Positions 5,440 to 32,009 of a stretch of DNA of 33,522 nt are shown here, one piece after another. The position numbers and the translations under genes are program-made. Source of the DNA: a virus (taxonomy: Duplodnaviria; Caudoviricetes); the IMG/VR virus record IMGVR_UViG_3300046049_000069, positions 1 to 33,522 of that record. One strand, written 5' to 3'. Position 1 is the stretch's first letter. Every line of letters starts with the position of its first letter. The notes under the pieces were generated by a model. The model was not told the DNA's origin, did no database searches, and saw only the letters and a program-made list of their open reading frames with translations.

Positions 5440-6483
5440 ATGTCACACGCGAAAAGACAGGGAGCGGCGTTTTTCTCCGGGGGCTACGACTCTCTCGTCT
5501 CCACCTACAAAACGATGGAGGTGGACGGGAACGCGGACCGCGTGGTTCACGTAGACACGGGGACCGGAATCCCGTTAAACGAGCGGTTCGTCGAGGCGGC
5601 CGCACAGAACTATGGGTGGTATCTCGTTAAACTCCGTCCTCGTAAGACTTTCTGGTGGTACGCGAAAAAGTACGGGTTCCCCGGGCCGAGTAAACACTCG
5701 TGGTATTACCGGTATCTGAAAGAACACCCGATTAAGCGGTTCTGTCGTATCTACGACGGGAAGCCCTACCTCTATACGGGCGTCCGAAAGGCGGAGTCGA
5801 ACCCCCGCATGGGTCGCGTCGTCGACCTGAACGAGGCGGAGTTCGGGTATTGGAACGCTCCATTGGCGGAGTGGACGGACGAGGACGTGGAGGCGTTCCT
5901 CGTCGACCACAGCCTCCCGCGGAACCCGGTCGTCGAGGAGATAGCCCGGTCGGGGGAGTGTTACTGTATGGCGTATGGTCTCCGGGAGTTCGAGGTGGAT
6001 CTCCGCGGCTACGAGGACGAGGCCCCGCCGGAGTGGTTACGCTCCCACGTCCAACGTCTCAAACGCAAAGAGTGGGAAGTTCAGGCTTACCGCGGTCGCG
6101 TCCACGGGTATCTAAAAGAGGACTACCCGGACGTGTATGAGGCGATTCACGACTACCGGACTGAGAACGACGACTCTCGTCTCCGCCTCGCCGTCCTCCG
6201 CGAACAGCATCCGGATCTCGCGGCGGAGATAGAGTCCATAGACGAGGTGGTGGCTGTCTCAAAGGGTCGAGAACAGGACTATTCATGGTTAGGACACGGG
6301 AAAATGTCCAGTCCGGAACTCCGTCGTAAGACCATGCCGGACACACAGGAACTTCTCTGTGAGGACTGTCGGGACTCCACCTCGACCGCGGGCGTCTCTC
6401 ACCCGGATCCGGACGCCCGCCTTCTCGTCGAACCGGAGGAACCGGACGCCGGGGAACAGTCCAGTTTCGACGACCTTCTCTAA
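5440..6483 (+). CDS. PAPS reductase-family (adenine nucleotide alpha hydrolase) protein
   Basis: PP-loop FSGGYDS, VHVDTG, TGVRKAES..R, PLAEWTDEDV, SGECYC and distal CEDC. Confidence 0.85.
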   Translation: MSHAKRQGAAFFSGGYDSLVSTYKTMEVDGNADRVVHVDTGTGIPLNERFVEAAAQNYGWYLVKLRPRKTFWWYAKKYGFPGPSKHSWYYRYLKEHPIKRFCRIYDGKPYLYTGVRKAESNPRMGRVVDLNEAEFGYWNAPLAEWTDEDVEAFLVDHSLPRNPVVEEIARSGECYCMAYGLREFEVDLRGYEDEAPPEWLRSHVQRLKRKEWEVQAYRGRVHGYLKEDYPDVYEAIHDYRTENDDSRLRLAVLREQHPDLAAEIESIDEVVAVSKGREQDYSWLGHGKMSSPELRRKTMPDTQELLCEDCRDSTSTAGVSHPDPDARLLVEPEEPDAGEQSSFDDLL

Positions 6484-9956: not shown

Positions 9957-10280
9957 ATGAGAGACAAACACCGTCGAACGAACAGGACGGTCGGCACGAA
10001 CCAGCCGACGACCACCCCGACGGGACAGGGACTCCGATCCCTCACAGTCATAACACCCGTCGGAGACGTCTCCGTCGCGTTCGGAGTAAACCACCATATC
10101 GCGGCGGTCGCCGCGGAGGTGTTAACCCGCCTCGAACGAGACCCGGAGCTACAGACATACAGCCTCGTCCTCGTCGAGGGTGACGAGGGGACGCCGCTGG
10201 ACCACGGGGACACGCTCGGATCCGCCGGGGTGGCAGACGGGGCGGAACTCGTCCTCGAAAGCAACCCCGTAGCGATATGA
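9957..10280 (+). CDS. Ubiquitin-like (beta-grasp, YukD/EsaB-like) protein
   Basis: PLDHGDTLGSAGVADGAELVL matches the ubiquitin/YukD C-terminal L.D..TL...G+.DG..L.L pattern; TATTTAA promoter near 9923. Confidence 0.6.
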   Translation: MRDKHRRTNRTVGTNQPTTTPTGQGLRSLTVITPVGDVSVAFGVNHHIAAVAAEVLTRLERDPELQTYSLVLVEGDEGTPLDHGDTLGSAGVADGAELVLESNPVAI

Positions 10281-24203: not shown

Positions 24204-24282
24204 GTCGAGTGGGACGACGGGGACCCGGGGGGTGACGGTTGGGACAGCGGATGTACTGATAGCCGTCGTGGACCAGGGAACG

Positions 24283-24299
24283 CGTAGCCTATCCTTAAG
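24283..24299 (+). promoter_or_regulatory. CGTAG-N6-CTTAAG promoter
   Basis: CGCGTAGCCTATCCTTAAG, near-identical to 31991-32009. Confidence 0.65.
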
Positions 24300-24324
24300 A
24301 CCCTCGGCGGACTCAAACGGGGTA

Positions 24325-24633
24325 ATGCCACACGAACGCGACCGGAGTTTCGACATAGAGAACTCGGGGACGGAGATCGTTATCGACACCGCCGGGGACC
24401 ATATCGTAGACGTGGTTATGAAAGACGGAGACGCCGCGGCGGACTACGCCCTCGACGTGTCGGACCGCAAAAGCGACTGGTTTACGGACACGGAAACGTT
24501 TTCGGGGGTTACGTCCATAGACGACGGCTACTACAACTCCCACCGGTACGTCAGGTTTAGGGTAACATCCGGAACCGGCGGATCCGGGGATACTGCGGAC
24601 GTATTGCTTTCGTCCGCCGGGAAAGGAAGGTAG
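24325..24633 (+). CDS. Small beta-sandwich protein (putative capsid decoration)
   Basis: ...SDW...RYVRFRVTS pattern; ATG 24325 lies 25 bp after the TATA element. Confidence 0.6.
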   Translation: MPHERDRSFDIENSGTEIVIDTAGDHIVDVVMKDGDAAADYALDVSDRKSDWFTDTETFSGVTSIDDGYYNSHRYVRFRVTSGTGGSGDTADVLLSSAGKGR

Positions 24634-25178: not shown

Positions 25179-25436
25179 ATGAATTGGGACCAGTACGAGG
25201 ACCTTGTCGAGAAAGCCGCGGCGTCCAAACAGGAACGGACTGCCCGAGAGGTTGAGATAGAACAGGCGCTAAACTGTTCTATGCCGGGGCTCCTCCGGCG
25301 TCTCCTCGACGAGAACGACGGGAAAGTCCGGTCGGGGCTCCGCCAGTTGAACGAGCGGCTGGACGAGGCGGGGATGGACGCGGACGTCTCGCCGAACACG
25401 TTCTACGATTATCTGGACAAATACCGACTCCGGTAG
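25179..25436 (+). CDS. Small HTH-like DNA-binding protein
   Basis: C-terminal VSPNTFYDYLDKY resembles a recognition helix; AT-rich upstream region. Confidence 0.6.
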   Translation: MNWDQYEDLVEKAAASKQERTAREVEIEQALNCSMPGLLRRLLDENDGKVRSGLRQLNERLDEAGMDADVSPNTFYDYLDKYRLR

Positions 25437-25442
25437 ACCCGC

Positions 25443-25570
25443 TGGGGGTAGATTGAAGTCCCCGGCGGGCTACTCGTCGGGTGTGGAGTCCGGCGAAAGC
25501 GGAAACCCATTTCGGGATTGAAACGAGTAGGCTGACTCCACAGTCCGGGGGATTACTCACCTCACCCCCA
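25443..25570 (+). ncRNA. Putative structured ncRNA containing a solitary CRISPR-repeat-like unit
   Basis: Complementary pairs 25443-449/25564-570, 25460-465/25545-550, 25470-477/25523-530 and 25482-490/25534-542; no credible ORF. Confidence 0.5.
25488..25524 (+). CRISPR. Solitary 37-nt CRISPR-repeat-like unit (haloarchaeal I-D-like), not an array
   Basis: GTCCGGCGAAAGCGGAAACCCATTTCGGGATTGAAAC: 37 nt, GTC start, AAACCC-N5-GGG hairpin, ATTGAAAC 3' handle; the match to I-D repeats is from recall. Confidence 0.6.
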
Positions 25571-25611
25571 CCTCCCCACCCACCACCTGGATCTCGGGCC
25601 AAACTCAACAT

Positions 25612-25634
25612 GCGGGGCGCTTTTTCCGTCCCGC
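25612..25634. terminator. Hairpin with internal T-run between convergent units
   Basis: GCGGGGCG-CTTTTTC-CGTCCCGC. Confidence 0.4.
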
Positions 25635-25658: not shown

Positions 25659-26843
25659 TTACTGTCGGTCCGCGTTGTCGATGACTCGGTAGCCGTGGTC
25701 CGAGAGGACTCCGGCGACGGCGACGAGTTCGTCTGCGTCCACGGTCCACGCTTCACGGTCCGAGTCAAAGGTCCGGTGGGTTTCGTTCCACGGCGTCTCT
25801 TTGATAGCCTTGTTAAACGGCGTTTCACTATCGGGGGTATCCCACGGCGCGGGTGCGTCGAGTACCGCTTTCATGCCGTACTCGGATTCAACGATCTTCG
25901 TAACGCGGACCGTCGAGTGGCTGTGGGCGTCCGGCGAGGATTCGACGAGTTCGGCGTCCGGGACGTCGGCCCACGGCGACCTGTCGGCGTCCGCGTCGTC
26001 GGCGTTGTAGCGGGACTCGAACGCTCGGGCGGCGCGGGCATGGGCGGACCCTAAGGCCTCGTCGAACGCGTCCGCGACCGTCCCGACCTCGTAGTGTTCC
26101 TGTATGTTGTTGTCGTAGGCGACGAGTGGCTGGTCGGCTATCGCGTCGTAGGTTGGGAGGTCGCCCTCGGGGTCGAGGTCGCCCGGCGGGTCGCCCGATT
26201 CGACGACGCGGAGGGGGCCGTCAAAGTTGGAGTCGTAGCGGAACGCGCCTTGGCCTTTCTGTCCGGCGACGGTTTGGTGGAACGTGCGAACGGCGCGGTG
26301 GACGACGAGACGGTTCGAATCTTTTTCGTTTCGGGTGAACGCGTAGAACCCGCCGCGGGGTCCCTGAACGAGGGCGAACCGGCTTCCCGTGAGGGTTCCC
26401 CATGCGTTCGGGTTCAAAAATACGTCTCCGTCGCGGAGGTCGCGGCCGTACTCGGGCGGGGAGTAGGCGGGTTCGTCCGGTTGGGACGCGGGGGGTGTCC
26501 CCGAGATAACGGAGGCGGTGAGAGCCTGTCCTATGCGGTCCTCGGGTTCGACGACGCGGGCGACGGTCGCGGGCTGTTAACGGTCGGCCCACAGGATACG
26601 GTCGCCGGGTTTGAGGTACTCAAGGGCGTCCACCGGTCGTCCGGCGTCCTCACCGGCTAACCCGAACTCCGTCGGGAGGTCGCGGGCGTCGGCGTCCGCC
26701 TGGGGTTTGCCGCCGTCCGTTCGGATCTCCGCGTCGAGGTAGTCTGTGGCGGCGTCGCGGAGGGCGTTCTCCGCGGCGTCGCGTCCGTTTTCTCGTTCTA
26801 TCTGTCGAACCGTGTCGAGAACTGCGTTCGTCGGTCTGTTCAT
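25659..26843 (-). pseudogene. Single ~394-codon minus-strand gene interrupted by one in-frame TAA (26579-26577)
   Basis: ORFs 26577..26843 and 25659..26417 are in the same frame; the linker reads WADR*QPATVARVVEPED...DVFLNPNAW with no other stop; promoter GGTAACTTTATT and AGGAGG upstream. Confidence 0.7.
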
Positions 26844-31992: not shown

Positions 31993-32009
31993 CGTAGCCT
32001 ACTCTTAAG
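31993..32009 (+). promoter_or_regulatory. CGTAG-N6-CTTAAG promoter of the tail tube gene
   Basis: CGCGTAGCCTACTCTTAAG, 30 bp before ATG 32039. Confidence 0.65.

Follow-up and report, generated by a model that had tools for sequence, protein, structure and literature searches.

Why would a virus of archaea carry a single CRISPR repeat whose two flanks are complementary to each other? The question is raised by an intergenic element in IMGVR_UViG_3300046049_000069, a 33.5-kb Caudoviricetes record, 62% complete, of which positions 1-33,522 were analysed as one stretch (the window). The window is the DNA of a Saparoviridae-like halovirus, whose hosts are salt-loving archaea. It contains genes for the terminase, portal, head protease, major head and tail tube proteins, and the best annotated-phage matches of both the protease and an 85-aa protein encoded next to the element belong to HHTV-2, a Saparoviridae member. 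The 85-aa gene (25179-25436, plus strand) is a homologue of HHTV-2 gene 35, with a weak helix-turn-helix likeness and a weak match to StbA (E 0.0034). Between its stop at 25436 and a convergent 252-aa gene on the minus strand (25659-26417), partially homologous to HHTV-2 gene 37, lies the element with its stems and repeat. The neighbour genes belong to no named family in Pfam or PADLOC; acr/aca neighbours are frequent, not required, for SRU/Racr loci. A proviral homologue of the 85-aa gene occurs in one of 401 Halobacteria genomes, and no repeat was seen downstream of it there.

Elsewhere in the window, the AT-rich stretch at 683-966 has inverted arms of 114 nt and direct repeats of 81 nt and could be a replication origin or a packaging site; Rfam miRNA matches at this region score far under the cut-off. 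The ORF at 24232-24633 probably starts at ATG 24325, because a promoter-like CTTAAG lies at 24294, within the listed frame. This halovirus also possesses a PAPS-reductase-domain gene (5440-6483) and a YukD/ubiquitin-like gene (9957-10280).

An altered, solitary type I-D repeat

The 37-mer at 25488-25524 (plus strand) had been taken for a CRISPR repeat in a first-pass annotation, and so it proved: its motif at 25503-25524 matches long arrays in many Halobacteria, in the 30 of 64 parts scanned. We assign the family to type I-D because the arrays in two genomes flank the genes for Cas1d, Cas3', Csc1 and Csc2. Like haloarchaeal I-D repeats, the window repeat has a GT start, a CCC/GGG hairpin (25506-25516) and a ATTGAAAC end, the last 8 nt (25517-25524) forming the handle. 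The GT at positions 1-2, which lie outside the search pattern, is common to the window and 36 of 36 array repeats, and the initial GTC to the window and 30 of the 36. The best of 73 array repeats agrees with the window repeat at 27 of 37 positions (73%); a closer repeat may exist beyond the parts scanned. In the 3' part, up to 20 of 22 positions agree with one of the 73, and of the 12 positions 4-15 no more than 5 do. Cas6d is described as cutting 3' of the hairpin and leaving an 8-nt handle (PMC10212523), and by analogy we infer a cut between 25516 and 25517 here.

The repeat stands alone, with one match in the whole window. Its setting is that of SRU/Racr loci: solitary, intergenic and in a mobile element, with cas genes absent nearby. 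One weak look-alike lies upstream. At 27/37 as the best of 73, it falls below the SRUFinder rule, which asks for 90% identity or more across 90% of a known repeat (PMC10651486, methods). Type I-D systems were found in only 15 of the 401 Halobacteria. Of 33 virus records examined over their full length, three contained the repeat pattern: an array record, a mini-array record and the relative L250. It was found in none of the five related records of the orthologous clade and not in HHTV-2, and L250 was the only positive among the protease-defined relatives. A separate scan with a type I-B pattern (34 of 64 parts, 120 loci) yielded a single array, without any convincing lone repeat of haloarchaeal type. 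A viral contig (L216:1900-2100) carries a type I-D mini-array of three degenerate repeats.

Complementary flanks and competing folds

The first-pass annotation had described four stems around the repeat, and all are present on the plus strand with exact coordinates and letters. Stem A joins CTACTCGT (25470-25477) to ACGAGTAG (25523-25530) over 8 bp and stem B joins TGTGGAGTC (25482-25490) to GACTCCACA (25534-25542) over 9 bp; the outer stems are P, CCCCGG (25460-25465) with CCGGGG (25545-25550), and O, TGGGGGT (25443-25449) with ACCCCCA (25564-25570). A and B do cross in the order A-B-A'-B'. The 5' strands of O, P and A are all upstream of the predicted RNA start. Overlooked in that description were a stronger rival hairpin at 25431-25476 and a 3-bp extension of B (25492-25494 with 25531-25533).

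Four disjoint Watson-Crick stems totalling 30 bp were found in 0 of 2,000 dinucleotide shuffles. Among the 2,000 shuffles, 15 contained two disjoint stems of at least 8 bp, as did 10 of 522 window tiles; the best tiles total 30, 29 and 29 bp of stems, and 28-30 bp is reached occasionally. For stems that span a repeat, natural haloarchaeal array units are a fairer null than dinucleotide shuffles. Two such stems of at least 8 bp were seen in none of 1,215 natural haloarchaeal spacer-repeat-spacer units and in 2 of 5,000 random spacer pairs, and a single one of at least 9 bp in 18-19 of the 1,215 units. By itself, an 8-bp match like that of A is not rare: about 3% of random 39-mers from the window have one, and so do about 10% of run-preserving shuffles. 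A, O and P jointly (8, 7 and 6 bp) recurred in 20 of 5,000 run-preserving shuffles, at thresholds chosen post hoc; their joint occurrence is still uncommon and is without explanation in the decoy reading that we favour below. A duplication origin for A, O and P was rejected, 1,084 of 2,000 shuffles being equally good. In locus L010, stems that follow the homologue of the 85-aa gene lie in a coding frame; stems of 8-10 bp can thus be chance, and caution is in order.

Would the four stems assemble into a pseudoknot cage? The proposal is that O, P, A and B do so in read-through RNA, switching with a hairpin-plus-rod fold. All four stems are perfect, the joint rarity of A, O and P speaks for it, and the two folds are mutually exclusive, as in a switch. 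In the fragment 25437-25580, an A-less scaffold has -47.1 and the A helix contributes -10.1 if initiation is counted and about -14 if it is not, which brings the sum near the free minimum of -58.6 before any penalty. A pseudoknot penalty is roughly 10-15 kcal/mol. In the fragment 25430-25600, however, the A-less scaffold reaches -52.8 against -72.0 for the free fold, the penalty being additional. A strong competitor is the local hairpin H0 (25431-25476, plus strand; core 25438-25449 with 25458-25469), predicted at -28.7 kcal/mol with z -4.4 (0 of 200 shuffles), which in read-through RNA absorbs the 5' strands of both outer stems together with part of A. H0 has a probability of 1.0 in long fragments and would form first; O and P are pairings of G-runs with C-runs. 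When the 5' arm of H0 is removed, another local hairpin captures A and P.

Pair probabilities of A, O and P stay at or below 0.01 across almost every nested ensemble, the exception being a value of 0.5 for O in one of them. A nested ensemble cannot contain A and B at the same time; yet O and P, neither of which crosses B, still lose to H0. In the long fragment 25430-25600, B itself drops to 0.11 and other pairings win. The A-less scaffold includes the 3-bp extension of B, which would be incompatible with A because no linker is left, 4 nt having to span about 20 bp by geometry. From the fold energies of the two fragments the cage is disfavoured in these models, and we consider it quite improbable. 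The expectation that both crossing stems share one transcript and beat rival folds failed: the predicted start excludes A, and the energies favour H0 plus the rod. From the earlier interpretation the lone repeat, the flank acting as a stem strand and the crRNA mimic as best reading survive, and the four-stem pseudoknot cage and a new ncRNA class are not supported.

Homologues of the element were found neither in phages nor in viral contigs (0, 3 and 15 short matches, the latter two sets judged to be chance). Plasmids gave repeat-level matches only, and 27 related virus records gave only the repeat of L250. Rfam covariance models, ribozymes included, gave no match with E of 1 or less near 25443-25570.

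A predicted small RNA that displays the repeat

We searched for promoters with a 16-nt matrix trained without the window on 22 related loci, which supplied 154 gene-upstream regions; in many genes, the ATG lies 36-37 nt past the motif start. The matrix predicts a promoter-like motif at 25446-25461 (plus strand), with a TATA-like ATTGAAG at 25452-25458. It ranks 92 of 67,012 window positions. Its score of 6.3 is modest, and a site within the repeat scores 7.0. From this motif the 5' start of the RNA is predicted at 25481-25483, the first bases of B, and the 5' strands of A, P and O would therefore lie outside the RNA, in promoter DNA. The promoter expected within 250 bp upstream of an SRU/Racr repeat is represented here by the predicted motif only.

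Comparison with relatives covered 17 loci in which a homologue of the 85-aa gene is followed by intergenic or new-gene sequence. In six of them (the window, L244, L239, L247, L258 and L251, of which L258 and L251 are close kin) a motif scoring at least 5.9 starts 0-15 nt past the stop of this gene, against 2.5% of random 20-position stretches that score at least 6.3; all six have a structured stretch past the predicted start, and five have no ATG in its first 30 nt. A TATA-like hexamer stands 28 nt before GTGTA in four relatives' promoters, as TTGAAG stands 28 nt before GTGTGG in the window; this spacing is not enriched in count versus other distances, and its four examples are homologous. A sigma-70 promoter scan was discarded as not applicable to archaea. 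The late promoters at 31994-32009 and 24284-24299 share GTAGCCTA before CTTAAG.

The predicted small RNA of about 143 nt (25481-25625, plus strand) would run from 25481-25483 to a U-run. The latter forms the loop of a terminator-like hairpin (25612-25634, plus strand), and similar hairpins are found past the same gene in several relatives. The RNA is predicted to fold into a rod, with a 12-bp clamp (B/B' plus the 3 bp), an AGUA/GAA loop and the repeat hairpin at the tip. The 5' strand of the clamp (25482-25494, plus strand) comprises B, a bulged C and the extension at 25492-25494; its 3' strand (25531-25542, plus strand), GCT followed by B', corresponds to nucleotides 7-18 past the repeat. Clamp pair probabilities are 0.85-1.0, and across four choices of start and end those of B and of the repeat hairpin are 0.87-1.0 and 0.88-0.97, respectively. 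With its real flanks the repeat hairpin attains a probability of 0.98, versus a median of 0.15 with 250 random flanks, and of 200,000 random leader/spacer pairs 0.05% form a 9-bp clamp of this type. The folding z of the rod is -2.5, and its minus strand folds equally well (-25.0 versus -23.7). When the RNA is cut in silico, the halves remain paired (-41.0 versus -8.7 and -22.6 apart). Three handle bases are predicted to be paired (unpaired probability 0.24, 0.23 and 0.04).

Past the clamp, a tail hairpin (25547-25569, plus strand; pair probability 0.87) pairs a G-run with a C-run and has an open C-rich loop. The C-rich tail at 25552-25590 holds TCACCTC in an open hairpin loop, which we take to resemble an anti-Shine-Dalgarno sequence; C-rich loops also occur in L258 and L251.

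Between clamp and hairpin lies a candidate sarcin-ricin/loop-E-type internal loop (25494-25530, plus strand), in which CGAAAG (25494-25499), from the rebuilt part of the repeat, faces CGAGTAG (25524-25530). Its shape is presumably 5x4. AGUA/GAA is the sarcin-ricin/loop E consensus as given in PMC1865062; here both strands face each other between two G-C pairs, the likeness being a sequence match within a predicted fold. Loops in the same register, 3 nt from B on both sides, were seen in 2 of 1,349 natural units and the pattern anywhere in a unit in 94 of 1,349, for a motif spotted post hoc. ViennaRNA, which has no loop E model, chooses a different register at this site. The loop competes with stem A, both using the bases of A'.

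Guide, scaffold or decoy

Does the stretch after the repeat guide anything? The earlier claim that it behaves as a stem strand and not as an ordinary spacer agrees with our searches, in which no target was found, and with its pairing to the 5' end of the RNA. It had no match in 50,697 phage records, its 24-mer none within 3 mismatches in 401 Halobacteria, and its 15 16-mer matches in viral contigs are at chance level. Seeds flanked by the GT- or GC-type PAMs described for type I-D (PMC10212523, PMC8482600) occurred at chance level only in 17 I-D loci, 24 viral loci and the window. The first 9 nt past the repeat have a match on the bottom strand next to the TATA in the virus's tail-tube promoter, where the flank is TAA; a random 9-mer matches a promoter zone in 0.8% of trials. 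These 9 nt exactly complement a portion of the 32004 late promoter. The tail-tube promoter is disfavoured as a target: TAA is given as a Haloferax I-B PAM in PMC6546412, whose 10-nt seed rule the match fails, the listed I-D PAMs start with G, and positions 10 and 12 are mismatched. Rejected were a coding-gene match in L010 (20/28, flank GAG, E 0.56) and a match in G001 (20/22) that misses the seed. For 845 host spacers searched against these viruses, the matches listed were only of 15-27 nt and of low complexity, and no host was assigned from them. No two repeats were found to enclose a spacer matching another virus, as in a viral mini-array.

These results bear on two readings in which the element would be a guide. 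The cut flank might direct host Cascade to repress a host cas or a viral promoter, in the manner of Cracr or CreR; a single repeat, a spacer-like stretch and a terminator do occur together in CracrVA1 (bioRxiv 2024.10.29.618823), and the 9-nt match beside the tail-tube TATA would suit such a role. We nevertheless think this reading improbable, given the wrong PAM type and the two mismatches at that site, the failure of the 24-mer in the 401 Halobacteria, a best PAM-flanked seed of 9 positions in the 17 type I-D loci (chance level), an own-promoter site that amounts to a 6-nt match with GAC, and the pairing of guide positions 7-18. Alternatively, the element could be a degenerate creA-type mini-array of two repeats, with ATTGAAGT (25452-25459) as the 5' handle and the next 28 nt as the guide. 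Positions 25435-25459 fit a hairpin plus handle at 14 of 17 positions with a 4-nt insert, and of 653,810 positions only 4 reach this score, of which two are true repeats. Yet the letters at 25452-25459 score as a promoter, recur as a TATA in the relative L257, and form the H0 loop in RNA; 28 nt is shorter than the 32-48 nt among the common lengths of the 845 spacers, and no target rose above chance, which makes this reading highly improbable.

With the Cracr, CreR and CreA RNAs, as presented in bioRxiv 2024.10.29.618823, 2023.03.10.532045 and 2023.03.03.530964, it shares a degenerate repeat, a spacer-like stretch and a terminator-like hairpin, and it differs in having no PAM-flanked seed of at least 10 nt in 17 I-D loci or the window and in its paired guide region. 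The main text of bioRxiv 2024.10.29.618823 contains no mention of 'I-D' or 'archae'. Virus-borne mini-arrays, as reported in PMC11656645, likewise have a host-type repeat in a virus, and L250 has two adjacent repeats; however, the window has no second good repeat and no protospacer was found in related viruses, and the L250 repeats have no spacer between them and are followed by native scaffold. Racr, as described in PMC10651486, is like the element in consisting of one intergenic viral repeat without cas genes, with a promoter-like motif upstream and with hairpin and handle kept. In contrast, the element is 73% identical to the best host repeat found, has both flanks paired into a rod and is of haloarchaeal type I-D. 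According to the same source, RacrIF1 works via an upstream product of 70-76 nt, which carries a Cas7 filament without Cas5 and Cas8, whereas the element would have about 7 nt before its repeat. The element would act like a Racr at best. Supplementary file 3 of PMC10651486 does include I-D entries, none with CGGGATTGAAAC, and no 'Halo'. Our literature search, which covered open papers and the main texts of preprints, found no paper on a lone repeat in a halovirus or on a clamped repeat.

The crRNA mimic proposed at the outset remains the best reading of the element. A single altered I-D repeat, likely in a small RNA with its own promoter, may serve as a decoy for host type I-D Cas proteins, making it a candidate scaffold-displayed RNA anti-CRISPR; we rate this as a serious possibility, somewhat short of probable. 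An RNA started at 25481-25483 would display the repeat at the tip of a stem-closed rod, where Cas6d would bind the hairpin and cut after 25516. The halves would stay joined by the B/B' clamp, which would keep guide positions 7-18 paired and leave free no more than the 8-nt handle and some 6 nt of guide. This pairing would restrict Cas7d loading, and Cas6d and the handle-binding subunits would be sequestered in a short, non-targeting complex. Stem strand A and the two outer 5' strands would be promoter DNA or, in read-through RNA, part of H0. Against the decoy speak the 27/37 identity, the part-paired handle, the absence of the repeat from close relatives and the presence of type I-D in only 15 of 401 Halobacteria. 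Acceptance of the altered repeat by Cas6d may fail (27/37; at most 5/12 at positions 4-15).

A parallel to the window is L250, in which a type I-B repeat (Rfam CRISPR-DR24) is fused to a type I-D repeat with zero spacer. Three relatives (L252, L246 and L253) have the promoter and surroundings of L250, lack the 65-nt insert and form a plain long hairpin at the corresponding site. The stretch past the L250 repeats is native sequence (20/21 match in L252) and pairs with the upstream flank with a probability of 0.88-1.0 in single-sequence folds. The repeat hairpins are weak in that fold (0.28 and 0.34), and the alignment-based fold of the family does not recover the terminal stem. As modelled, L250 shows repeats seated in the loop of a native stem, with the flank as scaffold and not spacer.

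The conserved promoter and small structured RNA-like element of L250 (3859-4062) also occurs in L252, L246, L248, L253, L247 (9275-9395) and L249 (9722-9838), the fused I-B and I-D pair in L250 alone; L247 has related words at two further sites, and L249 at one. The element had no Rfam match at gathering score in the scanned loci.

The promoter-plus-hairpin elements past the 85-aa gene differ among relatives (L239:8604-8740, L244:7840-8010, L242:8530-8730, L258:9626-9810 and L251:764-935) and often end in a hairpin with a U-run loop. Their sequences are not alignable with that of the window (alignment z at most 1.9), and short words common to the window and L007/L239 or L250 were not significant. 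The slot past the 85-aa gene is thus common to relatives and its cargo differs; judged from these sequences, it is a variable small-RNA slot.

The small RNA might then be structural or regulatory and unrelated to CRISPR, the repeat having landed in the variable slot, where it was absorbed or is decaying. Unrelated structured sequences do fill the same slot in relatives, the close relatives have no repeat, and in the window the 5' part of the repeat is rebuilt and the handle part-paired. Yet the hairpin is intact, as is every one of the 8 handle bases, the clamp lifts the hairpin probability from about 0.15 to 0.98, and L250 independently displays both haloarchaeal repeat subtypes in a stem loop; we regard this reading as unlikely. 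The decoy reading can also be generalised. Saparoviridae-like haloviruses may build decoys by inserting CRISPR repeats into loops of small RNAs of their own, in the window with a clamp that keeps the Cas6d-cut halves joined, leaves one Cas7 footprint free and traps a stunted I-D complex, a mirror image of RacrIF1, and in the relative with fused I-B and I-D repeats that jam both systems; we hold this version to be conceivable and rather unlikely. In its boldest form, which is very improbable, the read-through RNA would refold into the pseudoknot, switching the decoy on or off. A structural study has reportedly found a pseudoknot in RacrIF1.

A survey of haloarchaeal tailed viruses reports no clear anti-CRISPR proteins (PMC8651126), and the Racrs described as tested in PMC10651486 act on types I-C, I-E, I-F and V-A. 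If true, a type I-D decoy in a halovirus would fill both gaps, that of an anti-CRISPR of haloarchaeal viruses and that of a Racr against type I-D. Identity-based SRU searches would miss the clamped design, which offers a direct test of whether flank pairing sets which Cas subunits a repeat mimic traps. Even if only absorbed, the repeat points to a variable small-RNA slot in these viruses and to an RNA family of theirs that is unannotated.
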